Shown: positions 1 to 29,926 of the stretch, piece after piece | How the letters are laid out: every line of letters begins with the position of its first letter | Position numbering within the stretch: the stretch's first letter is position 1 | IMG/VR virus record: IMGVR_UViG_3300045988_112872 | Origin: a virus | Reading direction: 5' to 3' (one strand) | DNA: 29,926 bases | Notes under the pieces: model-generated | What the model was told of the DNA's origin: nothing | Database searches by the model: none | The model's input: the letters and a program-made list of their open reading frames with translations, nothing else | Translations under genes and position numbers: made by a program

Positions 1-99
1 ATTTTTTTTTTCTTAAAATTATTTGGAAATTTAAAAATAATGTTGTATATTTGTACTATCAAAATAAGAAATAATAAAAATGAAAATTTATTAAAAATA
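1..99. repeat. terminal redundancy, copy 1 (identical to 29828-29926)
   Basis: Read directly: nt 1-99 recur exactly at 29828-29926 (offset 29827). This means a closed circular or terminally redundant genome of 29827 bp. An exact 99-nt overlap could also be an assembler k-mer overlap. Confidence 0.9.
22..53 (+). promoter_or_regulatory. promoter P1 (rightward)
   Basis: TTTG (22-25), 20 nt, TATATTTG (46-53). This matches the Bacteroidota primary-sigma consensus of -33 TTTG and -7 TAnnTTTG. It can also be read as TTGGAA-17nt-TATATT. It is one of three near-identical copies (P2, P3). Confidence 0.55.
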
Positions 100-111
100 A
101 TTGCTAAATTA

Positions 112-143
112 TTTGGAAATTTAATTTTTATGTATTATATTTG
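112..143 (+). promoter_or_regulatory. promoter P2 (rightward), tandem copy of P1
   Basis: aaattaTTTGgaaattt...TATATTTG: TTTG at 112-115, 20 nt, TATATTTG at 136-143. It lies about 90 nt downstream of P1 and shares its flanks. Confidence 0.55.
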
Positions 144-171
144 CAGTATGAAACTAAAACTAATAATTCTA

Positions 172-197
172 GGCAGGTGAAAGTCCTGCCACTTTTT
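172..197 (+). terminator. GC hairpin plus T-tract (intrinsic terminator or attenuator downstream of P2)
   Basis: GGCAGG (172-177), loop tgaaagt, CCTGCC (185-190), then acTTTTTg. It lies about 25 nt after the expected P2 start site and upstream of the helicase gene. Confidence 0.5.
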
Positions 198-206
198 GAA
201 TCTTAC

Positions 207-256
207 TGTCAAGTTTTTTACTCACTTTTAGTAGTAAGAAAATAAAAATATTGACA
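207..256 (+). repeat. conserved intergenic element E, copy 1
   Basis: tgtcaagttttttactcacttttagtagtaagaaaataaaaatattgaca. The arms TGTCAA/TTGACA are inverted repeats. The core is ACTCA-N6-GTAGTAAGA. It ends 30 nt upstream of the helicase ATG. Confidence 0.75.
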
Positions 257-286: not shown

Positions 287-2008
287 ATGAAAACATATTT
301 AAACAATTTGATTAATGAGTTGCCAACTAACTGCTTATTTGATAAAGGAAAAGTTGGATGTGGAGGAACTTCAATGGCAATTGAATGTAATAAGCCTTAT
401 GTTATTTGTGTTCCATTTACTAGCTTAGTTGAAAATAAACTTCAACAATATCCAAATGAAAGACGTACTGAGAAGATATTTGGAGTTTATGCTGGAGTTA
501 CTATTAAAGAGATTAAAGATTACGTAGATAGTGTTAAATGTCCTAAAATTATTGTTACATATAACTCACTTCCGAAGGTTATTTCTGCAGTTAATACTAA
601 AGAATACAGTTTATTAGTAGATGAATATCATATACTATTTAATCAGTATAGCTTTAGAAAGGATGCTATTAAACCTGTTTTAGAGAACTATGAATTATTT
701 AAAGATTTTACATTTATGACTGCTACTCCTCTTGAAGAAGAGTTTGTATTAGATGAATTAAAAGATTTAGAATTAGTAAAGCAAGAATGGGATGATGTTA
801 TTGAAACCAAGGTACAAGCCGTTAAATGTAAGAATGTTGAAGCTTCAACTATTAAATTAATTAATGCTGTTCTTAATAATCAAGTCGAAGGTAATGTTTA
901 TATATTTGTAAATTCTGTAGACTTTATAAAGAATCTTATTCAGAAAGCTAAACTTACAGAAGAGAATACCAGAGTTATATATTCCAAAAACAATAAAACC
1001 AAATTATCAATTCATAATTCTACAGTATTAGATGAACCTAAGAAAATAAATTTATTAACTTCTACAGTATTTGAAGGTTCTGATATTTATGATGAAAATG
1101 GAAGAATTGTAGTAGTAAGTGATGCTCAAAAAGCACAAACTCTTCTTGACATCTCAACTTCAATCCAACAGATTGCTGGCAGAATTAGAAATAGTAAATA
1201 TTTAAACTGGATAACTCATCTTTACTCAGCAACAAGATATGCAGATATTAGTTATGAAGACTTTAAAAAGAAGAATATCCAGAATATTGAGGAAACTAAG
1301 ATTGCTGTAGATGCTTACAATGCAATGCCTGAAGTTGCAAGAAAGAAACTTAAAGAATTTACATCTGATACTTATATCCAAGTAAATGATGATTTTACAT
1401 TTACATTTGATCCAAATATGGCTAAGGTAGATATTTTTAACTTTAAAGTGACAAGAGGTTTATATTCTATTAGAACGAATCTTAATAAAGAATATATAAA
1501 GAATGGATTTAAAAAAGTAATAGAATGTGAAGACAACTCTATTAAGATTGATTTTGAATCTGATAATAAACCATTTAAAGAACTAATTAAAGAAGTTAGA
1601 ACAGAATGGGAAAATAAATTTAAACTGAATACTCCACTCTTAAATGATGCTATTATTAAATATCCTTGGTTACCAGAAGCTATTAGTAAATTAGGATTCG
1701 AAAAGATGGCAAGCTTGAAATATTGCATTTCGGATATTAAAGATGCTCTATTAAAGAAATCAAATAAAAGTGCAGATAATAAAGCAGCTAAGAAGTTAAA
1801 TCAATCAATTACTCTTGGAATGTGGTATTCTAACGCTGATATTAAAAAGTTTGTTAAAGAAGCTTATGAAATTAGTGATATTACTATTACTCCAAAAGCA
1901 ACAGAAATTGATAAATATTATGAAGTTAAAAAATGCCAGAAAAGAGTAAATGGTAAACAAACTGAAGGTTATGTAATTATTAATAAAAAATTTGTATTTA
2001 ATAAATAA
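287..2008 (+). CDS. superfamily-2 (DExH) helicase, probable replication initiator/helicase
   Basis: 573-aa intact ORF. Motifs by eye: GKVGCGGTS (motif I-like), LLVDEYH (II), FMTATP (III), TSTVFEGSDI (V), QQIAGRIRN (VI). TAA stop. Its 5 Trp are all TGG and it has no in-frame TGA. Confidence 0.7.
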   Translation: MKTYLNNLINELPTNCLFDKGKVGCGGTSMAIECNKPYVICVPFTSLVENKLQQYPNERRTEKIFGVYAGVTIKEIKDYVDSVKCPKIIVTYNSLPKVISAVNTKEYSLLVDEYHILFNQYSFRKDAIKPVLENYELFKDFTFMTATPLEEEFVLDELKDLELVKQEWDDVIETKVQAVKCKNVEASTIKLINAVLNNQVEGNVYIFVNSVDFIKNLIQKAKLTEENTRVIYSKNNKTKLSIHNSTVLDEPKKINLLTSTVFEGSDIYDENGRIVVVSDAQKAQTLLDISTSIQQIAGRIRNSKYLNWITHLYSATRYADISYEDFKKKNIQNIEETKIAVDAYNAMPEVARKKLKEFTSDTYIQVNDDFTFTFDPNMAKVDIFNFKVTRGLYSIRTNLNKEYIKNGFKKVIECEDNSIKIDFESDNKPFKELIKEVRTEWENKFKLNTPLLNDAIIKYPWLPEAISKLGFEKMASLKYCISDIKDALLKKSNKSADNKAAKKLNQSITLGMWYSNADIKKFVKEAYEISDITITPKATEIDKYYEVKKCQKRVNGKQTEGYVIINKKFVFNK

Positions 2009-2026
2009 AAATATTATATTTGTGAT

Positions 2027-2526: not shown

Positions 2527-3096
2527 TTAAGCGTATTTTCAAATGTATCCTTTAGATGTTTGCTTTAATCCACTACATACTCTACTAATGGCTCCTCTAT
2601 CAGTTCCTACTGCATTAGCCGCTTCAGTACAGCTTTCATATTCCTTAATAAAGTTTCCCTCTAAATCATATTGTAAAACCTTTTTACATCTTTTCTTATT
2701 ATGAATTTCATTACTAATCTTCCAAGGCAAACTATATAAATGTTTCTTACCTTTATTTGATTCTGATAGTTTCTTTCTTCATTCTGGAGAAAATTTTATT
2801 CCATAGTTGCCACCTTCACCTCCTGGCTTCAAGTTTAAACACATTGGATCTACTTCCCATTTATCTCCTATTAATTCATACTCCCTTTTAGATAATTCAT
2901 CTGAATCATTACAGAATGCAATTATTTCTTTTTTATATGCATTAGGAAATCTTTTATAGTAGTTCTTAATAATTTTACCAGAACCTTTATATGGATCTTT
3001 ATATGGGTCTTTTCCTTTATAAATACGCTTACCAATGTAATATTTTCCTCTCAATGAGCCAGCAGTTAAATAAATTTTATAACAATAGTAAAACAT
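2527..3096 (-). CDS. GIY-YIG homing endonuclease (GIY-YIG, NUMOD3-like linker, C-terminal HTH)
   Basis: Joins track ORFs 2779-3096 and 2539-2730 (same frame) through TGA at 2779-2781 (FSPE-W-RKKLSESNKGKK). Reads through TGA at 2539-2541 (SKGYI-W-KYA) to TAA at 2527-2529. N-terminal YKIY...GKYYIGK is a GIY-YIG motif. Confidence 0.8.
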
Positions 3097-4795: not shown

Positions 4796-5473
4796 TTACT
4801 TACTCTTTTTATTGTTATCACTTGAAGGGAAATCATAAGCTCTTTGCAGAGGACCTTCACAAGAATTATATCTCCAACCTTTACCTCTAGCTCCACCTAA
4901 CCAAATAGTACAAGATGAACTTGAATACATATTTGGATACATATCTTTAAGAGGTTTATAAGAATACAATTCAGGAAAATCATTATAATATGTAATTACC
5001 CAATTTTGTAATCTCGTTTTAAAGAAATCTGCTTTATCTCTATAATATTTCTTAATAAGATTAACTTGGCTAATATCAGAAGTTAAATCTTTCTCATCAT
5101 CAGTCCTCATAACCCCAAAATTACTCAGCTTAAATGAGATGGGTATAGTAATCTCACTTAATACTTGATAAAGTAAATAAGGCTGAATATAGTAATCTAG
5201 CAATTCTTTATATCTATGATTTTCTGGGTCATCTATTGAAGTAGGATCATAAATAGGAGGTTCTATTGGATGAACTGGTTTATTTGGATCTTTTCAATCA
5301 ATTACTAATTTCTGAATCTTTTCTAAGAGCTTAGTTCCAATTAATGACTGAAGCTCAATATCTTGTGCAAGTTTAATTGCTGACTGAAGATATTTACCAG
5401 AAACATTATTGTCTAGATTAGATTCTGATTTTATATAATCTTCAGATATTAATAGTACATTTCTATATTCCAT
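4796..5473 (-). CDS. putative head-tail connector / head completion protein (225 aa)
   Basis: ATG at 5473 (MEYRNVLLISEDYIKSESNLDNNVSGKYLQSAIKLAQDIELQSLIGTKLL...). TGA at 5294-5296 (LVID-W-KDPNKP) joins it to track ORF 4796-5203. The function guess rests on the N-terminal motif and on position next to the portal. Confidence 0.4.
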
Positions 5474-6116
5474 AATAATATTTATAATTTTTGCAGGGTT
5501 TATTTTTTCTACAAGATCTAGATATACTAGAAGAATCTACATTATTCTTCTCTCCAGCTTCCTTAGCTGATTTATACTCACAAATAAAATTACCATCTAA
5601 ATCATACTTATATACTTTTTTGCACTGACGTTCTGAAATTAGTTGTTTTTCTTTATCTGAGAGTTTCATACCTTTATTTCAAGGAGTTTTGCCTAATCTT
5701 GCCTCCCTCATTTTACGCTTGCTTTCATCTGAATGCTGTTTACCATAAAATGAGTTATTTTCTCCTGATCTTATAATTCTAAGACTATCTTTATAATCTT
5801 GTGAAAAAGAATATCCACAAGTACCGTCTCCTCCATCAGTTAAATTATACCCATATTTTGGATTTCTAGTATTATACTTATAAATCAGAATCTTTTCTAA
5901 AGTCTTAGCACAAGCTTCTGGAAGATTATCTCTAATTATAATATGCTCAAAATTATCTCAACCATATTTTTTAATTGCTCTGCTAAAATAAAGATTATTC
6001 TTGTAACCTTGACCTTTAGTTCCCCATCTATTATTTAAAGTAAGTGATGTTATTCCAAAATATAATTTATTATCAGCTATATTCTTATGGCAGTACACTG
6101 TATAATTATTCAACAT
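5463..6116 (-). CDS. GIY-YIG homing endonuclease (217 aa)
   Basis: ATG at 6116: MLNNYTVYCHKNIADNKLYFGITS...NNRWG...AIKKYG-W-DNFEHIII (TGA 5958-5960) ...LGKTP-W-NKG (TGA 5679-5681) ... C-terminal HTH (track ORF 5463-5669). TAG stop. It overlaps the portal end by 11 nt and the connector start by 11 nt. Confidence 0.85.
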
Positions 6117-7197
6117 TTTCTGCATTGTCTGACATTCCTTTTGGAGTTAAACTAAATGGTTCAATAGTAATACTATTCTTAATGCCGAAGATTTTATCAA
6201 ATGAGTCACAAATTTCTGATTGTATTGGGCGTACAAAAGTACGATTATATAGCTTAAATGCTTCATTAAACTCATTTTCATTAAATCCTGAGCTATAGTT
6301 TAAACCGAACAACGAAGGATTAGCTCTGAAGGCACAGAATATTTGATCTCTGGTTCTCTCAGATAATGATTGATATTTCTCATCAAAATCATCAGAATCT
6401 AATCTTTCAATAGTAGTCTTATTTGCCTCATCTGCATTATATGAAATCAATATTCTGCCAGCATTCTGATAACCAGAGAACTTCTCATTAATATTCCTCT
6501 CAATCTCCTCTCTAATTTCATCTGTAGGTTCCCCATTATTAAAGTTAATAATAAGATTACCCATAAATCCATTATTGATGTTATTTAAATGGAATTCATT
6601 AATATTTTTCTCAGTTTCACAAGATAAAATGGCAGCTCCATAAACAGGAATAGGATATACTCCTCTTGTTATATAACCTTTATTATAAAATATACTAGCT
6701 GGATTTTCATCAGCAGCTCCAAATTTTGGATATTTTATAGCTTTTGCAGACCAAGCTGTCCAATCAGTTGCATAATATAATATATCATTCTTTTCGCTTG
6801 ACCTTACATTCATAAAATCAATATGATAGATCTCTGCAACTCTTCCAAGCATATCTCTAATTACTTGGATAGCATAACCTCCAAATATCATCTTATCAAT
6901 AGTGATTTTTCTCATTATATCAACTATTGTTTCACCTTTCTTGTTTACAACTACTTCAAATCCTGGAGCATTACATTTAACATCATTACCAACAATAAAG
7001 TCAGCAGAACCATTAATAATGGATTGGAGAGTGGCAACATTTAAATATAAATCCCATAGATATAATGGATATTTATTATCTTCTCCTCACATTACATAAT
7101 CTTTTCCTCTCACTTTAGTTTCTGTAGGTAATACGATATTACTTGCAATAAACGGATCAATAGCACTTAACTGAACTTTTGTTTTATTTTCGCTCAT
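6106..7197 (-). CDS. portal protein (363 aa)
   Basis: ATG at 7197 (MSENKTKVQLSAIDPF...GKDYVM-W-GEDNKYPLYLWDLY...), TGA at 7087-7089, continuing into track ORF 6106-6915. The pattern is portal-like (GEDNKYP, NNGFMG, FRANPSLFG). Confidence 0.7.
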
Positions 7198-7651: not shown

Positions 7652-7679
7652 ATTAAAGGAGACCTAAGCCTCCTTTAAT
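7652..7679 (-). terminator. intrinsic terminator (leftward), abutting element E2
   Basis: The 10-nt arms 7652-7661 and 7670-7679 pair, with core aaaggag/ctccttt. The leftward strand has a U-rich tail after the hairpin (aauuauuuua). Confidence 0.6.
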
Positions 7680-7728
7680 GTCAAGTTTTTTACTCACTCA
7701 AAGTACTAAGAAAAAATAAAAACTGACA
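7679..7728 (+). repeat. conserved intergenic element E, copy 2
   Basis: tgtcaagttttttactcactcaaagtactaagaaaaaataaaaactgaca. It begins at the last nt of the terminator hairpin and ends 5 nt from the TAA (7733-7735) of the LRR fibre gene. Confidence 0.75.
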
Positions 7729-7732
7729 AAAA

Positions 7733-8701
7733 TTATGCTGATGCTAAAGTTCAGTTTTTAGATGCAGCTAATGATTTCTGTTCCTCAGTAAGTGCATTAT
7801 AAACGTTAGTATAAAAAGTTAAAGTTTTGGTATCCTTTCCAGTTAAATCACTAACATTTGTAATAATATCAGTTACTGATTGACTATTTAGTGCGCTAAA
7901 ATTTGCTAAATTCATACTTTTATCAGCTCCTTCAACACCCCCAAAATAAGTAACAATAGTATTAGTAAATGCACATATTGAAGCTTTATTTAGATCTCCT
8001 ATTAATGTGCAATTATTTAATTTAATTTTTCCTACTGTTGTAACACCCTCATTATATGAACTAAAGTAATTATATAAAGATAGTTGTCCATTAATAACTT
8101 CAATTTCAGGAACATTACTGCTAACAGAATAAAAGAAAAAATGTAAAGATGATACACCAGTATCAACTTCATTTATCACTTTTAAAGTAGTTGGTAAATT
8201 AGAAGCATTAAAGAATGTTCTTGTTGCATAATTTCAACCAGAGGATAAGGTATTAATTAATTCTAAATTATTTAGTGTGCCTTGAAATCCAGAAAATGTA
8301 TCCGAATCCCCAACACTAATTCTTATATTATCAATATATATATTATATGTGTTTTGGAAGGTATATGATGCGTTATATACTTTAGACAGATCAATATGAC
8401 TTGATATATCTATTGTAGATATGAAATTAGTCCCATCAAATCAATAATGTATATTATCTGGAAGAGAATATTCTATATTATTATATTGCTCTTGTGTCAT
8501 ACTAGAATGTGCAAATGTTAATCCATAATCATTTAAATTAATCTTTCCTCCACCACCTCCAGAAATCTGTCCTATCTTATCTGCATAGCTTCTAAAGGTA
8601 TCGGAATCTGATACAGCAACACCTTTAGCTACAATAGCATCTTTAATGGCACTCTTAGTACCTTCAAGATACGTTAATTTATCAGAAATTGTATTTGCCA
8701 T
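7733..8701 (-). CDS. tail fibre / receptor-binding protein with BspA-type leucine-rich repeats (LRR-A, 322 aa)
   Basis: Joins track ORFs 8441-8701 and 7751-8179 through TGAs at 8441-8443 and 8234-8236. Reads through TGA 7751-7753 (AASKN-W-TLASA) to TAA at 7733. The N-terminus ISDKLTYLEGTKSAIKDAIVAKG is fibre-like. The C-terminus is paralogous to 10117-10959 and 12380-13333. Confidence 0.65.
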
Positions 8702-8702
8702 A

Positions 8703-9224
8703 TTAGATATATTTAAATTTTACCCCTTTATAAGTGTCTGTTCTTCCTTTAAGACAATCTATAACTCTACTATGAGTATACCCATCTATTGATGTTTCAA
8801 TTGCATTTTTATATGTTTTAACTAGTAAATCATTAATAAATAGCCCTACAGGTTTACTAATTTTATCAATACATCTATTTATTCTAGTTCCATATGTATT
8901 ATTATACTTTGCATCACATCATTCTAAATTTTCTACCCTATTATCTGTCTTATTTTCATTTATATGGTTAACATATGGTAGATTGTCAGGATTTGGAATA
9001 AATGCTTCTGCTACTAGTCTGTGAACTTTAATAGCTTTAGGTTTATCTAAGCCAGATACTAGAATTACATAATTATAGCCATATTTATCTATATGCTGTT
9101 TTAGCTTTTTATGTATTTGTTTTCTGGTTCTTCCAATAGAATCTTTAAAAGTCAATGGGTTACTATATACATCTCCTGTAGAAGATACACTATAGTTAGG
9201 ATAATTTGTTAATACTCTATTCAT
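8703..9224 (-). CDS. HNH homing endonuclease (NUMOD4-like N-terminus, HNH, C-terminal HTH; 173 aa)
   Basis: Start at Met 9224 ([21 protein letters not shown]...[13 protein letters not shown]...[27 protein letters not shown] 8919-8921), continuing to TAA at 8703-8705. It overlaps the fibre gene end by 8 nt. Confidence 0.8.
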
Positions 9225-9876
9225 TTGGAATTTCACCATTAATTGTATCAAGAGTAGTTGAAATATTACCAATCTGAGCTTGAATTGCTGAGATTTCTCC
9301 ATCTAACTCTGTCATCTTTGTATTATATGCATCTGTAGTTACATAGTTTGATAACTCACTTTTATCTGCTTTAAGTGCAACTTCATCTTTAGTAGCTAAT
9401 CCAGATACATCAGGAATCTTATTCTCTACAGCTGTAAGCTCTTCTTTAGTAGCAAAATCACTAGTATCAGGAATTTCTGCTTTAGTTGCATAATTACTTA
9501 AATCTACAGATAGTTGCAAACCTTCTCCATTTCTATGTAAAGATAGAGGCTGATTAGCTTGGAATACTTCCATCTTAGAAGTTTCTAACTCCTCAACTTC
9601 TCCTTTAAGATTAGTAATCTCAGTATTAATTGGAACAAGTTTAGCATCTATAGATTGATCTACTAAAGGTGGAACTTGATCTTCAATACTTTCTGTTACT
9701 TTAGTATCAATTAACTCTTCTGCTTTCTCTTCAGAAATGTAATTACCTTTAGGTTGGAATCTTTCATCTGCTTCAATCTTAGTATAAGAACCAACAGGAA
9801 GTTGTCCAGATTCAATACCACATTTCTTACTTACATAGAAAGTTTGTGTATTTTTAGTATTCTTAAGTATAATCAT
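9217..9876 (-). CDS. tail fibre protein, coiled-coil with repeated xATKxE motifs (219 aa)
   Basis: Intact ORF with a TAG stop. It carries repeats such as [38 protein letters not shown], similar to motifs in 10961-12157. Confidence 0.55.
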
Positions 9877-15528: not shown

Positions 15529-16122
15529 TTAATGTTTAACTCTTTTTATTTTTCTCAACATTTTTTGAATCTCTTTAAGTTCCTCATATTCATCAGATTG
15601 TCTTTCTAAAGTGAACAACCCCTCAATAGAGAATCCTTTAAACTTGCCAGCTTTAATTGCATCCCATATAACAGGATTATTTACTTTATAAGTAGCAAAT
15701 AATGAACCATCTGGACAATCAGCAAATTCAACTGGATTAATTCCTCTATCTATATCTTTAACATATAGTTCTTGAAGAATTATTCCAGGAATTACTGAAT
15801 CTTCCAAATGTTCAATATTTACATCAGTAGTTCTCTTATCATACATCATTTTTTCAGCCATTAAACGAAGAGTTTCTTTATCATATTGAATATAATATTC
15901 TCCGTTTTTACTATCCCGTCTAAATATAGGTATATCACATACCATTAAACAAGAAGTAACTATATGTTTTTCTTCATCCATCGAGAACTTCTGAGATTCC
16001 CCAAAAGCAAGCCAATTAACTTGGGTTGCAGGTTTACTGGTCAATGCTACGAACTCTATTCCATCACAATCATCGGCAATAATTGCTTGATATAATGGAA
16101 GATCATTATACATTTTTTCCAT
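15529..16122 (-). CDS. prohead protease, XkdF-like (197 aa)
   Basis: The pattern matches the XkdF family by eye: VALTSKPATQVNWLAF, HIVTSCLMVCDIP, DVNIEH, GSLFATYKVNNPVIWDAIKAGKFKGFSIEG. Confidence 0.65.
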   Translation of the reverse strand: MEKMYNDLPLYQAIIADDCDGIEFVALTSKPATQVNWLAFGESQKFSMDEEKHIVTSCLMVCDIPIFRRDSKNGEYYIQYDKETLRLMAEKMMYDKRTTDVNIEHLEDSVIPGIILQELYVKDIDRGINPVEFADCPDGSLFATYKVNNPVIWDAIKAGKFKGFSIEGLFTLERQSDEYEELKEIQKMLRKIKRVKH

Positions 16123-16200: not shown

Positions 16201-16251
16201 ATGTCAAGTTTTTTACTCAAATTTGTATCTAAGATAAATAAATTTTGACAT
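16201..16251 (+). repeat. conserved intergenic element E, copy 3
   Basis: atgtcaagttttttactcaaatttgtatctaagataaataaattttgacat. The arms ATGTCAA/TTGACAT give 7 bp. It lies between the tape-measure-like gene (stop at 16318) and the protease gene (start at 16122). Confidence 0.7.
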
Positions 16252-16317
16252 AGCACTACTATATAAGCACTGATAATCAGCAACTTACGTAGTAGTGTGT
16301 CATAAATTTTACTCACT

Positions 16318-18633
16318 TTAGAAACTTGCATTTGATTCTGTAACTGCAACTTTAGTTTGAGCAGTAGTAATATCACTCTCAACTACATAACATTTAACTG
16401 GTTGATTCAATTCATCAGTCTCTTTATTGCCAAGTAAATTTCGAGTATACTCAACAGGAGCTTGTGTAAGTGCAGATGGAGCGGATACTGAAGATGATAC
16501 ATCACTACCAGATATTTCTTCATTTTCAATATTTTTAATTTGAAGTAATCCCATAGCAATAGCTGCAGCAGCAGCAATACCACCTAATACAGGACCTACT
16601 ACTGGAATTCCTGCCATAGAGTTATAAGCATTCATTGCTGCAGAAGCGGTATTAAATACGGTAGATATTTTAGCTATAGACTTATAATTTTCCATAGCTT
16701 TTTCTCTCTCCTTTAATGACTTCTTGGAATTATTTGCCTCAAATTTATAGTTTTGAGCTACAGCATCACCTAAACTTCCTAATGCAGCAAAACTTCCTTG
16801 AACAGCAGCTACAATGTCTTTAATTTCATCTTTTTTAGCAGCCTTTATTTTTTCTCCATTAGCTACAATAGCATTTGCAGCAGCAGTATCATTTGCTTCT
16901 CTTTCTGCATTTAATCTTGCATACTCATTATTATACTCTTCTTGAGTTATTAAGCCATTATCAAACGATTCTTTTAAAGTGGTTTGTAATTCTCCAATTC
17001 TTTTATTATCTCTTTCGTAGAATCCTAACTGTATTTCAAGTAGCTCATTAGATTGTGTTATTCTATCGTTCTTTTCACTCTTTATATCTCCCGCAGTCTT
17101 GTATTCGTTTCCAAGACCTGCATTATGTGTATATGTCTTATTATATTTAGTATCTAACTCAGATTGCCTTTGATCAAAAAATCTATTCTCTCGTTCTCTA
17201 AGTTGTTCTAAAGAATTAATTCTATTATTAATTTCTTTACGATACCGCTCGTTCTGATTGTCTAGATACTCTTTATCATAAGCATCATTTATTTGCTTTA
17301 ATCTCTTTCTATATTCCTCAACTGTTATAAGCTCTTTATCTTTAGCTGTTTTAAGAGCATCTAATTGATTTTGATATTTGGTATTTAATTCATCTAACTC
17401 TCTAGCTTCATCATCTAATAGCAGTTTTCTATTCTCTTCATAGAAATCATTGATAACCTTCAGTAAATCAGCGTTACGTTTCTTTGCATCTTCAATATTC
17501 TTTAGATAGTTAGCCTTAGCCTCTTCTCTGGCTTTACGCTCTGCAGAGATTTCCATCAGTTTAATCTTTTCATAAGTTTCTGAAGTTTTCTGCATTAAAC
17601 TATTTCTCTTCTCTATATATGCATTGTAGATACCAGAAGCTTCGTCGTAAGCAGCTCTTTGATCATCATTTAACTTACTTAAAAAGAAATCAACTTCATT
17701 AGAACTAGTTTTTAATCCTCATTGAATCGACTTAGAATAATCTTCCCAAGTGTCATATCCAGATTTCTTAAACTCTTTTCTGAAGTATTTATTACTCTTA
17801 AGTATATCTGTAAATGAATCATTATATGCTTTAGTTACACTTCCAAATTGCTGGAATAATTTAGCATCTAATTCACCTAATGCTTGAGCATAATCCTTTC
17901 AGATTTGTATTTCATTCTTTTTACCTTCAGCTAAATCTCTTTCTCTCTGTCTTTCTAATCCTGCAATTTCTGTATTAGCTTGTGCATAGCTAGTTCCTCA
18001 TTGGTCTGTTATGTCTTTTAACCCTGAAATACTAATTTTTAAATCATCAACTCCAGATGCTGCTTTGATTGCAAAGTCTACTAACATTCCTAATGCTACT
18101 ACTAATGCTCCAATACCTGTTGATATAATAGCAGTTCGTAGCACTCCCATCGCAACAGATAAACCTCCAGTAGCAGTCGTAGCACCAGCCATCGCAACAG
18201 ATAAGGCTTTAAATGATTTTACTCCATTAAGAATACCTTCACCTAAACCTTTTAATCCTCCAATTCCCTGAACTATAGCAATTGCTGCTTGCAATTTAAC
18301 CATAGTTTTTTGAAGATTCTCTGTATCTCTTCCAAATAAAGTAAATGCAGCACTTACAGCCGAAACTCCACCTGCAAGACCGCCAGCTACTTGGTTAATA
18401 CTATCAAAAGCTTTAACTGCATTTACAGTCTTACCTTGCATAGATTCAGTAGCTACATTAAGCTTGTTTTGTGCACTTACAAGCTCTTCAAGTTTTTTGG
18501 AATAGTCAGAACTACCAATTTCCAATGATTCAAGTTCGTCAGTCAAGCCAGCTACTTGTTCTCGTAGCTGCTTGATTGACTTTGTACTTTTAGTAGTATC
18601 TATATCTATTACCTTTTTAATTTCTTCATCCAT
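16318..18633 (-). CDS. tape-measure-like / internal virion protein (771 aa, coiled coils plus Gly/Ala-rich hydrophobic segments)
   Basis: Joins track ORFs 17998-18633 and 16318-17595 (same frame) through TGAs at 17998-18000, 17899-17901 and 17719-17721. I translated the whole gap and found no TAA or TAG. Confidence 0.55.
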
Positions 18634-24820: not shown

Positions 24821-24843
24821 CAAGGGAGATTTTTACTCCCTTG
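24821..24843 (-). terminator. intrinsic terminator (leftward) ending the early/packaging module
   Basis: caagggag (24821-24828), loop, ctcccttg (24836-24843). On the leftward strand it is followed by cuuuuuug. It overlaps element E4 by 2 nt. Confidence 0.7.
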
Positions 24844-24891
24844 TAACTTTTTTATATTATCTTAGTACCAAATATGAGTAAAAAGGTTACA
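24842..24891 (-). repeat. conserved intergenic element E, copy 4 (inverted orientation)
   Basis: The reverse complement reads tgtaacctttttactcatatttggtactaagataatataaaaaagttaca. It has the same core ACTCA-N6-GTACTAAGA. The arms have changed together to TGTAAC/GTTACA. Confidence 0.75.
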
Positions 24892-24892
24892 G

Positions 24893-24988
24893 TTAGTGTC
24901 TCCTCTTTCACTCTTCTATTTGTCTTTTTTCTTCATTTCCTTTATCTATTAGATAACATATAATATTAAGAAACTCTTGAATATACAT
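24893..24988 (-). CDS. possible mini-ORF (31 aa) in the largest non-coding gap
   Basis: ATG at 24988: MYIQEFLNIICYLIDKGNEEKRQIEE-W-KRRH with one TGA. TAA at 24893-24895, one nt from E4. It is very short and may be non-coding. Confidence 0.2.
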
Positions 24989-25035
24989 ATCATAGACTTG
25001 ATGCCAATTTAATCTTGTAACTTCACTAACTCTGT

Positions 25036-25695
25036 CTATTCAACAAACCCAGTTCCATTTTGCACCAAACTCACTGTTTTCCGAGACTGAACGATCATCT
25101 TCCTTAATTGATACTTCTTCACTGGATCTTTCTCCTTCTTCAGCATCTTCTTCATCTCCCTTATTGAAGAGATTAGGGTACTGACCGTTAATGCGGCTAA
25201 TAGATTGCAAAAAAAAACCATAATGTCATTTATGACAGTAATTGGAATTTTATCATATAACTTATCTGCCAGTTCAATTAAATCATAGCCTTCATTATAT
25301 TTCTTACCTTTTGGAATTAAGAAGCATAAAAAGATATATTTAAAATTCTTTTGATAGTCTTTATAAAAGTTCTGAAAATCTATATATTGAGCAGCAGTCA
25401 TCTGCCTAATATTTAATTGTACAGTATATTTATCTCCAGCAATAGTATATTCAGTTTCTGGAGCCTTAGCTTTGTATTTATTGATTATAAATTGAACTTT
25501 ATTAAGTTCTACAGCTAGTTCATCTAACCCCATACTCAAAAGAGTATCTCTTGTTTTATCTGGATCATCTGAAAGTAATGCACATATCTCAATACTTCTA
25601 TCTAAATCAGTCATCTTTGCATTACTGTTTATAAACTCCATTAGAGCTTCATATTGTTTAAGACTTACGTCTTCCCATTTAGTTGCTATATTCAT
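25036..25695 (-). CDS. hypothetical protein (219 aa)
   Basis: Intact ORF whose ATG overlaps the TerL stop. TAG stop. I recognise no motif. Confidence 0.5.
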   Translation of the reverse strand: MNIATKWEDVSLKQYEALMEFINSNAKMTDLDRSIEICALLSDDPDKTRDTLLSMGLDELAVELNKVQFIINKYKAKAPETEYTIAGDKYTVQLNIRQMTAAQYIDFQNFYKDYQKNFKYIFLCFLIPKGKKYNEGYDLIELADKLYDKIPITVINDIMVFFCNLLAALTVSTLISSIREMKKMLKKEKDPVKKYQLRKMIVQSRKTVSLVQNGTGFVE

Positions 25696-27711: not shown

Positions 27712-28041
27712 TTAATCAATAAGTTTGTATATAACATCTATCAGCTTAGTAGATGCATCTTTTAATAATATCATAATATCTTTAATAATTGGAGTCATAA
27801 ATGCTAATAGTGCAATATACCCAACCATTAAAATTGAAAATTGACTTGTAATAAGAATATATATTAATCCAATTCACCAAGTCATACATAAACTGCAATC
27901 TAAAGGTTTTAGTCTTCAATCTTCTTTATAAGGTATACCTTTAAATAGTCTTTTTCAAATACTGTGTTTAAAACTATCCAAAGCCCCAGATAAATCAATT
28001 ATAAAGACTATTATTACTGCTATTATAAATAATTCTAACAT
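27712..28041 (-). CDS. small membrane protein (109 aa, about 3 TM helices, CxxC motif)
   Basis: ATG at 28041. It has three TGAs (KHSI-W-KRLF, YKED-W-RLKPLDCSLC, MTW-W-IGLIY, the last adjacent to a TGG Trp). TAA at 27712-27714. It is absent from the standard-code track. Confidence 0.6.
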
Positions 28042-28280
28042 AATCTCTCTCTTATTTGTTTAATAAATCTTTGAATTGTAGTATGACTAATTCCTAATAT
28101 TCTTCCCACTTCTCTATAACTGTGATATTCAGCATATAATATGATTACTGTCTTATCTGCCTTATTAAGCTCAAGTCATTTTGGATATATACTTAATAGT
28201 CTATCATCCATATTTGTAAACATACTATAGTCTATTTCATACTCAGTAAGTAAATCGTCAATATTAATCTTCCGTTTCAT
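28035..28280 (-). CDS. sigma-70 family region-4 protein (HTH half of a split sigma factor; 81 aa)
   Basis: ATG at 28280: ...SIYPK-W-LELNKADKTVIILYAEYHSYREVGRILGISHTTIQRFIKQIRERLC. TAG at 28035-28037. It has the region 4.2-type HTH pattern and is absent from the track. Confidence 0.6.
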
Positions 28281-28572
28281 TTAATCAATCCTCCAATTCG
28301 TCATTTTGTTGTTCAAGTGGTTCTTTAACAATCTCATAATATTTCTTATAGGTATAGTAATATCTACTTGTTTTACTAAACCAATAATTCTTAAATAATC
28401 TTGTAATCCAAAATTTCAATTCATTTTTGCTATCAAGCTGATTTAATTTTGGATTTGAATACTCTAGTATTTCTACAAAAATCATTTGAACACAGTCATC
28501 ATCTGCACCAAATTTTTGCTTAAGTTCCATAATAAATGGATAGTACTTTTCTACAATTTCGTTATTACTCAT
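28264..28572 (-). CDS. sigma-70 family region-2-like protein (N-terminal half of a split sigma factor; 102 aa)
   Basis: Track ORF 28285-28572 read through TGA 28285-28287 to TAA at 28264-28266. DDCVQMIFVEILEY and FWITRLFKNYWFSKTSR resemble ECF-type regions 2.1-2.4. Confidence 0.45.
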
Positions 28573-29059
28573 ATGTTCACATATATCCTCCTGCTGTTTT
28601 TCGCTGCCCTTTAAGAACCTTTACAATATTTCTAGATTGTATATTTAGTTCTCTCTCAGCATCTATTGCTGAATCCCATCTTTTAATAACTATTCCATTT
28701 AGTAATTGCAGTATTGGTTTCTTATGACTATATCCAGCTCGCAGATTATGAGTTCCATAATTATTATTATAATTATAAGTACACCATTCTAAATTAATTA
28801 CATTATTATTTGATTTATTTTCATCCTTATGATTTATACAAGGATAGTTATTCGGATTAGATATAAAAGTTTCAGCTACTAATCTATGTATATAACACTT
28901 CTTTTTCAAATTTTTATTATATAATGTTACTGTAAAGTACCCATTAGTTTTTACTTGAGGTTTTAACCTCTTTGGAACTGATGCTCTTAAACTTCATATT
29001 GAGCCATCAGTTCCAATTTGGTAGTTTTCAAAATTAAGTATTCTTTTATAGGCTATCAT
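28565..29059 (-). CDS. HNH homing endonuclease (NUMOD4-like N-terminus, HNH, C-terminal HTH; 164 aa)
   Basis: ATG at 29059: MIAYKRILNFENYQIGTDGSI-W-SLRAS (TGA 28994-28996) ...NGYFTVTLYNKN...IHRLVAETFISNP...INHKDENKSNN. It reads through TGA 28577-28579 (AGGYM-W-TYE) to TAA at 28565-28567. Confidence 0.8.
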
Positions 29060-29722: not shown

Positions 29723-29766
29723 AATTTTATTATTTAATATGTTAATACTTGTTTATTATTGTACTA

Positions 29767-29798
29767 CAAAGATAATACATTTTTATTCAATTTCCAAA
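29767..29798 (-). promoter_or_regulatory. promoter P3 (leftward), same type as P1/P2
   Basis: The leftward strand reads aaaaaaTTTGgaaattgaataaaaatgtatTATCTTTGtag: TTTG (29798-29795), 20 nt, TAtcTTTG (29774-29767). It lies about 45 nt upstream of the ATG at 29722. Confidence 0.55.
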
Positions 29799-29827
29799 TT
29801 TTTTGACAACTTTTTTCATAATTTTTT

Positions 29828-29926
29828 ATTTTTTTTTTCTTAAAATTATTTGGAAATTTAAAAATAATGTTGTATATTTGTACTATCAAAATAAGAAATA
29901 ATAAAAATGAAAATTTATTAAAAATA
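29828..29926. repeat. terminal redundancy, copy 2 (identical to 1-99)
   Basis: See the feature at 1-99. Confidence 0.9.

Follow-up and report, generated by a model that had tools for sequence, protein, structure and literature searches.

A Stem-Loop Element Associated with an SF2 Helicase-Like Gene in Uncultured Gut Phages

Stem-loop origins of replication beside an initiator or helicase gene include HSV-1 OriS and OriL, which work with the SF2 helicase UL9, the origins of geminiviruses and circoviruses and other rolling-circle origins, the phiX174 PriA assembly site, and the M13 minus-strand origin. In these origins, a variable stem carries a conserved loop; HSV has three origin copies, and UL9 reads the sequence of the arms. 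The T4 origins oriF and oriG and the T7 primary origin instead combine a promoter with an AT-rich unwinding element. ECF sigma promoters have a -35 box with AAC, a spacer of 16 to 17 nucleotides (nt), and a -10 box with CGT, as in the TGTAAC-N17-CG type, and palindromic repeats of the REP and MITE type are extragenic and bear terminal inverted repeats. The PeSLs of T4-like phages are composite terminator/promoter cassettes (PMC2839356, PMC4122927).

The element described here, E, is an intergenic sequence of about 50 nt that occurs four times in the IMG/VR record IMGVR_UViG_3300045988_112872, a stretch of 29,926 nt referred to below as the window. Its stem changes by paired, compensating mutations, which argues that E is a real structured control element. 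Its unusual features are a deep linkage to an unnamed helicase family, a strand-polar amplification that runs against most genes, and the existence of stem-swap, inversion, and empty-site alleles.

The element and its setting in the window

The window corresponds to a circular genome measuring about 29.8 kb (a repeat search found bases 1 to 99 identical to bases 29828 to 29926), with a G+C content of about 29%. TGA columns align with Trp in TerL alignments, indicating that TGA is read as Trp; with stops limited to TAA and TAG, the open reading frames (ORFs) fuse into proteins of 1149, 771, and 734 amino acids (aa). No suppressor tRNA was found in the window or in 18 relatives, and a tRNA scan of the window returned no match. 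Under this code, the plus strand carries one gene, the SF2 helicase-like gene at 287 to 2008 (573 aa, free of in-frame TGA), and all other genes are on the minus strand, running from 29722 to 2527. With almost every gene on the same strand, GC skew carries no information.

Searches for known relatives gave little: megablast with 25 kb of the window against cultured phages found no match, tblastn with TerL gave matches that were all below 30% identity, and scanning species genomes with a TerL alignment, in search of the host, turned up no relative. A distant relative (L257:1-7100) is a prophage whose flanking host genes stop at TGA and contain no in-frame TGA. A 148-kb "viral genome" (IMGVR_UViG_3300045988_175865; L015, L017, and L076) proved to be a tandem concatemer with a unit of 29,846 bp, repeats one unit apart being 100% identical, and was ruled out as a host contig, jumbo phage, or prophage. 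Within the window, four minus-strand genes resemble homing endonucleases (2527 to 3096, 5463 to 6125, 8703 to 9302, and 28565 to 29059), two of them GIY-YIG-like and two HNH, and both HNH genes have a 138-nt repeat in common (8886 to 9023 and 28751 to 28888). The 518 nt from 2009 to 2526 contain no convincing gene; they hold a plus-strand promoter and a strong hairpin (2494 to 2523), with room perhaps for a small ORF (2326 to 2490) or an RNA.

E occupies four of the five largest gaps between genes, and three of the five terminator-like hairpins of the window touch a copy (the five are at 172 to 190, plus strand; 7679 to 7652, minus; 24843 to 24821, both strands; 13412 to 13389, minus; and 2523 to 2494, minus). 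The four sequences read the same as those quoted in the preliminary description, and a repeat search recovered them independently (direct family D4 and inverted pairs I4, I5, and I11); an exact 18-mer, TGTCAAGTTTTTTACTCA, is present three times in the 30 kb. That all copies are intergenic, as first noted, still holds when TGA is read as Trp.

The founding copy, E1 (207 to 256, plus strand), has type I arms (TGTCAA..TTGACA) and lies 30 nt 5' of the ATG of the helicase-like gene, in sense orientation. Just 5' of it, on the plus strand, is a GC hairpin with a T-run that resembles an intrinsic terminator (172 to 197), and most of the distant relatives read have the same arrangement, with E placed between terminator and helicase gene. 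E2 (7679 to 7728, plus) has type I arms (TGTCAA..CTGACA) and is antisense to the flanking minus-strand genes; it begins 4 nt past the stop of gene 7733-8701 and abuts a minus-strand terminator-like hairpin (7652 to 7679), which touches its TGTCAAG end. E3 (plus), also with type I arms, separates the stop of gene 16318-18633 from the start of gene 15529-16122, at a position that carries a type II allele in other genomes; it had been correctly located but assigned to 16201 to 16251, and it is in fact 49 nt long, from 16202 to 16250. E4 (24842 to 24891, minus) is opposite in orientation to E1 to E3, has type II arms (TGTAAC..GTTACA), and forms a near-perfect dyad around a central GTAC. Gene 25036-25695 has a frame-shifted extension whose stop precedes the beginning of E4 by 1 nt, and the end of E4 overlaps a terminator-like hairpin (24821 to 24843, scored on both strands) that is kept in relatives whatever the E allele. 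The three GC hairpins previously noted beside E1, E2, and E4 are confirmed as terminator-like, and E lies next to terminators at operon borders. The core had been given as ACTCA-N5/6-GTAnTAAGA, but E3 reads GTATCTAAGA, which misfits GTAnTAAGA; the constant spacing is ACTCA-N10-TAAGA.

Two other features adjoin these copies. To the right of E3 and before the stop of gene 16318-18633 is an 8-bp inverted repeat (CACTACTA at 16254 to 16261 and TAGTAGTG at 16290 to 16297), which may be the counterpart of the GC hairpins beside the other copies. Near the end of gene 25036-25695 (window 24893 to 25100, minus strand), a slippery -1 heptamer, GGGTTTG, opens an alternative frame of about 47 conserved codons that stops 1 nt before E4, and this site resembles the programmed frameshifts of G/GT-type tail chaperones.

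Upstream of E1, two tandem early-type promoters on the plus strand (23 to 51 and 113 to 141) fit TTGGAA-N17-TATATT or, alternatively, TTTG-N20-TAnnTTTG; transcripts from them would run into the hairpin at 172 to 197 and then into E1. Repeats of the early-type promoters at 16 to 157 (plus), about 29766 to 29804 (minus), and 1985 to 2023 (plus) fit the same two patterns, the second being that of Bacteroidota, and their ATTTGGAAATT box is common to relatives down to 40% TerL identity (L208 and L249). The repeats of L208 were examined as candidate E copies and ruled out, as they are early promoters.

Orthologs, alleles, and stem pairing

The helicase-like protein has 757 homologs and no Pfam, PHROG, or NCBIfam name. 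E is a previously undescribed, covariation-supported cis-element, and it is tied to this very large, unannotated family of phage SF2 helicase-like genes. The protein carries the motifs DEYH, TAT, and QxxGRxR and a Walker A sequence, GCGGTS, that lacks the usual Lys. Its predicted structure is an SF2 two-RecA core with an extra C-terminal domain (pLDDT 82). A PDB sequence search gave no match; the Foldseek matches are generic SF2 proteins with DEAD-box RNA helicases at the top, hairpin-bound DbpA being one of these, and the origin-binding helicase of HSV-1 appears at rank 24.

An inverted repeat lies between the terminator-like hairpin and the helicase ATG in most relatives read, at 32 to 56% helicase identity. 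Counting all relatives, this hairpin spans 32 to 100% helicase identity, and the E-like interior of T-run, loop, and A-run is recognizable down to about 41%: relatives at 41 to 56% have a stem of 11 to 13 bp, unrelated in sequence, around a T-run, an AT-rich loop, and an A-run. The stem is made up of the variable arms plus the T-run paired with the A-run, and it encloses an asymmetric, semiconserved loop of 22 to 26 nt (A[C/A]T[C/T][A/C], 4 to 7 nt, G/GTA, and an A-rich stretch), whose motif is only partly conserved beyond the clade. The perfect stems of L258 (TGAGGGTT/AACCCTCA, 13 bp), L295 (GCTAGA/TCTAGC, 12 bp), and L257 (CCTATAT/ATATAGG, 11 bp) were equaled by 0 to 1 of 300 shuffles, in a perfect-arm test that has low power in AT-rich DNA, where only long stems stand out. 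Shorter stems are present in L294 (CCTTACA/TGTAAGG, 7 bp by reading of the sequence) and L289 (TTAC/GTAA, in two tandem copies), and those of L297 (GTGTGACA/TGTCACAC, a perfect 8 bp), L337 (GTGTAACA/TGTTACAC, also a perfect 8 bp), and L329 (GGTTACA/TGTAACC, 7 bp by reading) enclose interiors that differ from that of E. No comparable hairpin was found upstream of the helicase gene in L260, L292, or L296. A MAFFT alignment of the distant orthologs did not bring the arms into register. In the L297 lineage, one side of the stem carries an extra G in L316, and L330 has that G plus a matching C, variants that look like a compensatory insertion.

The helicase-upstream hairpin occurs once per contig in the L297 lineage and in one copy in the L258 locus, indicating that the four-copy state is specific to the clade of the window. 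The distribution of copies points to the one 5' of the helicase-like gene as ancestral and normally single in this group of uncultured gut phages, and to the three extra copies as an acquisition of this clade. Relatives of the L249 type are fully syntenic (portal, 73%; TerL, 57%) and have the helicase module replaced by an HTH_36 gene with three direct repeats; nhmmer found no credible E in them, an absence that may only reflect their greater distance at this level of TerL identity.

Direct repeats are found beside replication or integration modules in several of these phages: ATTTTGAGTAC three times in L249 (6800 to 7000), pairs of GTACC-N-AAAATC in L097 (5290 to 5380 and 7555 to 7640), and GTACCAAAAAGGG twice in L258 (9845 to 9900). 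They resemble the GTAC..AAAA part of the E loop, and one L097 site has 12 nt (ATATTTGGTACT) in common with E4. The repeats of L097 (GTACC..AAAATC) and L249 were considered as homologs of E and set aside, as they are loop-like but homology could not be shown.

Among close relatives, we compared about 45 human-gut contigs from IMG/VR and ENA (29 to 33 kb; TerL 81 to 100% identical), gathered by searches with the 18-mer and with TerL. In the ENA assemblies ERZ779875 and OHQS01, the TerL protein is 100% identical to that of the window. A profile search with nhmmer located E at the same four positions in these approximately 45 relatives. Type I arms read TGTCAAG..(T/C)TGACA, and type II arms are found in forward orientation at positions 1 and 3 and exclusively inverted at position 4, such that the two types replace each other at all three positions. 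Rarer types are TGTCTA..TAGACA, TGTGAAG..TCTCACA (L245), and GCTGG..CCAGC (L246, position 1). Arms of 5 to 7 bp are present in every allele but one, the E1 allele of 046576/L287, which has no right arm. The left half of E (arm, T-run, and ACTCA) is its most conserved part, and the central 5 to 6 nt are free to vary. By manual count, E3 and its counterpart in the 046576 lineage differ at 0 of 44 positions outside the central spacer, versus 17 of 90 flank positions.

Position 4 is the most changeable. It carries a forward type I allele at about 25 loci, giving four copies on one strand (e.g., contigs 120591, 097310, 119598, 140557, and 073522), an inverted type II allele at about 31 loci, and no E in L246, the only source of an empty site. 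The flanks are conserved to within about 5 nt whether E is forward, inverted, or absent; the filled forward site is flanked by direct repeats (TAAAA/TTAAA), and the other copies show no consistent duplication. Since this copy can be inverted or empty, it is at least dispensable or orientation tolerant. Orientation and allele type at this position are fully linked across the approximately 56 loci: inverted copies are always type II and forward copies always type I. With no type I allele inverted and no position-4 type II allele forward, active flipping is not indicated, and no recombinase gene was found in the window; E as an active invertible promoter switch (inverton) was rejected on these two grounds. 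The forward E4 allele and E1 have in common a loop dimorphism (CTTTT or AATTT).

In E4, both arms were initially seen to differ together from those of the other copies, a change that is real; the family has at least five types of complementary arms, of which this is one, and five occur within the clade (TGTCAA/TTGACA, TGTAAC/GTTACA, TGTCTA/TAGACA, TGTGA/TCACA, and GCTGG/CCAGC). Across 16 distinct arm combinations, aligned as arms only and joined by an artificial linker to hold the register, 91.7% of the cells of the six outer arm pairs are paired, and five of the six pairs have changed on both sides. None of 500 shuffles did as well, and slid registers were 6 to 33% paired. The preliminary description had proposed following the covariation across homologs, and there the pairing is held and the arm changes are compensatory, including at positions other than that of E1 (types II, III, and IV at positions 3 and 4). 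Of the two causes originally suggested, selection on pairing gains from the many additional arm types, and a dyad-symmetric site for a single protein does not fit, because unlike arm types coexist within single genomes (the window, contig 093071, and L246). The commonest arm mismatch is A.C on the forward strand, which is G.U on minus-strand RNA, and the wobble evidence is mixed between strands. Folded with RNA parameters, six helicase-upstream hairpins have energies of -9 to -14 kcal/mol (z = -2.6 to -3.75); when folded as single-stranded DNA, the copies of the window form only weak structures (-3.8 to -5.6 kcal/mol; z = -0.55 to -1.8).

Possible roles of the element

We tentatively favor, at rather less than an even chance, the reading of E as a putative replication-module site, a strand-specific hairpin or cruciform in the DNA that would serve helicase loading or priming. 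E would be a stem-loop cis-element belonging to the phage helicase module and would act on DNA, as an extruded hairpin or cruciform or as an exposed single strand. A phage protein would recognize its loop, the likeliest candidate being the helicase-like protein with its C-terminal domain, and E would serve as an origin-type loading or priming site whose polarity is set by the strand that carries the loop. The tandem promoters and the short terminated transcript beside E1 may activate or prime that site. The three further copies were added in the clade of the window at the ends of minus-strand operons, as a rule all on the strand of the helicase gene. Only single strands can pair in this way, and the loop is oriented by the helicase strand and not by the transcription around it: many genomes have their four copies on the helicase strand regardless of local gene direction. 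A DNA hairpin or cruciform thus accounts for the largest number of observations. Weighing against it are the weak single-stranded DNA folds, the Walker A sequence without Lys, the generic nature of the Foldseek matches, the invertible or empty position 4, the need for a promoter in or near E1, and the lack of iterons, none of which were found beside E1 in the window. Strand-polar replication sites had been among the alternatives first listed, on the basis that all copies point away from the junction region; that pattern is contradicted by the roughly 25 related loci with a fourth copy oriented like the other three, and the idea survives in modified form.

A promoter is the next reading to consider, and a possible one, though we are doubtful of it. 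Forward E would be a phage-specific promoter/operator cassette in which E1 drives the helicase-like gene and E2 to E4 drive plus-strand antisense or primer-like transcripts into the 3' ends of late operons, maybe with host core RNA polymerase and a two-piece ECF-like sigma factor. The stretch between the terminator T-run (197) and the ATG (287) is only 89 nt long, and E1 fills 207 to 256 of it, so that a helicase promoter must overlap E if there is no read-through of the terminator. E1, E2, and the E4 allele in forward orientation each have a GC hairpin on their 5' side, and type II copies read TGTAAC-N16/17-GTA, resembling ECF promoters. As to the sigma factor, two adjacent minus-strand ORFs (28264 to 28572 and 28035 to 28280; 102 and 81 aa, overlapping by 17 nt) match the N-terminal (4 to 104) and C-terminal (117 to 161) parts of the ECF sigma model TIGR02937, each below the curated cutoff, and the 81-aa ORF passes Pfam Sigma70_r4_2 (26.5 bits versus a cutoff of 25.7). 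The pair is separate in 31 of 31 homologs and never fused. The earlier remark on split sigma proteins is weakly supported by these matches, and the pair is possibly a two-piece sigma factor.

The geometry of E argues the other way. The promoter-like spacing first reported (GTCAAG/GTAACC, 16 to 17 nt, GTAnTAAGA) is not conserved: by reading of the sequences, the distance from arm to GTA box is 17 to 18 nt in the window copies and 13 to 19 nt in the helicase-upstream orthologs, and the arms are unrelated among orthologs and within genomes. As described from the outset, E1 and the window E4 face their downstream genes, whereas E2 and E3 are antisense to every neighboring gene; so is the forward E4 allele (about 25 loci), and the initial judgment that a simple promoter model does not fit all copies is borne out by these orientations and by the spacing. 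A promoter scan combined with reading found neither TTTG/TAnnTTTG nor TTGACA/TATAAT with the right geometry in E. The Bacteroidota sigma-A promoter, TTTG-N19-21-TAnnTTTG, is absent from every E allele, though present at 23 to 51 and 113 to 141; some alleles carry, by reading, cAnnTTTG without a -33 box. The promoter reading also leaves the complementarity of the stem unexplained and has to accommodate a fourth copy that can be flipped or missing. Moreover, the sigma-like pair is present in syntenic relatives of the L249, L253, and L256 types, in which nhmmer finds no credible E. Given that the geometry is not kept, that the arms differ within genomes, that three copies are misoriented, and that relatives with the sigma pair have no E, these comparisons indicate that E is not a simple promoter. 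Two variants of the idea were dropped: outward-facing TTGACA arms as -35 boxes are followed by a -10 box only at E3-left and weakly at E1-right, and the likeness of ACTCAC to T7-type promoters was discounted because the window has no single-subunit RNA polymerase gene.

That E works as RNA appears unlikely to us, although several features are typical of RNA elements, among them the compensatory stem changes and the z scores of the RNA folds. On this account, E1 would be a protein-binding or stability hairpin in the 5' untranslated region of the helicase mRNA, reached by read-through of the hairpin at 172 to 197, and the other copies, as reverse complements, would be stability or processing hairpins in the 3' untranslated regions of late operons that could pair in trans with the helicase leader. 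The positions of E2 and E4 at 4 and 1 nt past stop codons, directly before terminator hairpins on minus-strand mRNA, agree with this, as do the G.U pairs that the commonest mismatch would form there, the hairpin-bound DbpA and other DEAD-box RNA helicases at the head of the Foldseek matches, and the loop dimorphism common to E1 and the forward E4 allele. However, RNA from E2, E3, and forward E4 would present the complement of the loop, and RNA from E1 and inverted E4 the loop itself, such that one RNA-binding protein cannot read all copies. In addition, E1 requires read-through of the upstream terminator, the E1 and E4 loop dimorphisms match within the genome in only four of the six genomes with a forward fourth copy, the wobble evidence does not single out one strand, and Rfam 15 gave 0 matches at E ≤ 1 across the whole window. 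Decidedly improbable, in our estimate, is a trans-acting network of sense and antisense hairpins, in which E1 in the helicase mRNA leader would kiss or form duplexes with the E hairpins at late-operon 3' ends, so that late transcription would be coupled to the shutting off or processing of the replication gene, or, alternatively, a tethering of the helicase-like protein by these hairpins, as DbpA is tethered to an rRNA hairpin.

Least probable of all, and very unlikely, is a selfish or neutral nature of E2 to E4, which would then derive from E1 as a miniature inverted-repeat element or by gene conversion and be tolerated only between genes, without a function of their own, as the terminal inverted repeats, the closely conserved flanks and TAAAA/TTAAA repeats at position 4, and the mutual replacement of types I and II might suggest, against which stand the pairing kept at positions other than E1, the greater conservation of E3 than of its flanks by manual count, the fixed positions in about 45 genomes, the strict linkage of orientation to type, the failure to find a transposase gene, and the lack of any multicopy presence in 185,579 species genomes.

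Other classes were examined and rejected. E is not reported as an intrinsic terminator by the scan that finds its neighboring hairpins, and its stem is AT rich; a T-run follows the E stem, on the opposite strand, in L258 only. As a host repeat, E is dismissed because the 18-mer has 25 scattered single matches in the species genomes, versus approximately 17 expected by a rough estimate, several of them ordinary palindromes or promoter regions with an A-tract and TTGACA, and the full E occurs in none. Nor is TTTTACTCA a dispersed half-site, as it is not enriched (29 matches versus 23 expected). E as a recombination hot spot was ruled out because the breakpoints in identity between relatives are not concentrated around it (1 of 246 within 40 nt of a copy versus 4.3 expected).

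The stem, loop, and strand of E offer a handle on replication start or expression timing in uncultured, stop-codon-recoded gut phages, and its natural alleles (stem swaps, an inverted copy, and an empty site) are ready-made genetic controls.

Comparison with known systems

E differs in at least one defining feature from the cassette and promoter classes and agrees with the origin class in the only features of that class that can be computed. It is like REP and MITE-type repeats in its length of about 50 nt, its terminal inverted repeats, its extragenic location just past stop codons, and its presence in either orientation, or absence, at one site. It departs from them in having only four copies at fixed positions, the same four in all relatives rather than many copies or new insertion sites, in not occurring in bacterial genomes, and in having a founding copy fixed 5' of one gene across deep divergence.

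The resemblance to ECF promoters lies in the type II sequence and in the ECF-like sigma that the phage encodes in two pieces; unlike those promoters, E conserves neither spacing nor boxes among orthologs, has three misoriented copies, and has a right arm that mirrors the left, which a promoter does not need. Similarly, PeSLs and E are both short conserved cassettes repeated in intergenic DNA at module borders, with a stem-loop and conserved adjacent sequence and with alleles swapped between relatives, but E has no host early-promoter consensus, most of its copies oppose the neighboring genes, breakpoints do not gather around it, and its ends covary as a stem.

With the origins of T4 and T7, E1 has in common tandem promoters 5' of an AT-rich structured element and a replication gene, and the genome has several dispersed sites. 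In contrast to those origins, promoters are found beside E1 only, a terminator separates them from E1, and R-loop priming is without support here.

As to stem-loop origins, UL9 reads arms, whereas the arms of E are free to vary; neither an HUH nuclease gene nor a primase gene was found in the phage, and by eye E has no sequence similarity to the HSV, rolling-circle, phiX174, or M13 origins. The features in common are an inverted repeat around an AT-rich center, strand specific and possible in several copies per genome, with a compensated stem and a conserved loop, and linked across lineages to a helicase-like gene whose product has an extra C-terminal domain and counts the HSV-1 origin-binding protein among its Foldseek matches. 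If the helicase-loading reading is true, E would be a phage counterpart of the palindromic origins that are read by an SF2 origin-binding helicase.
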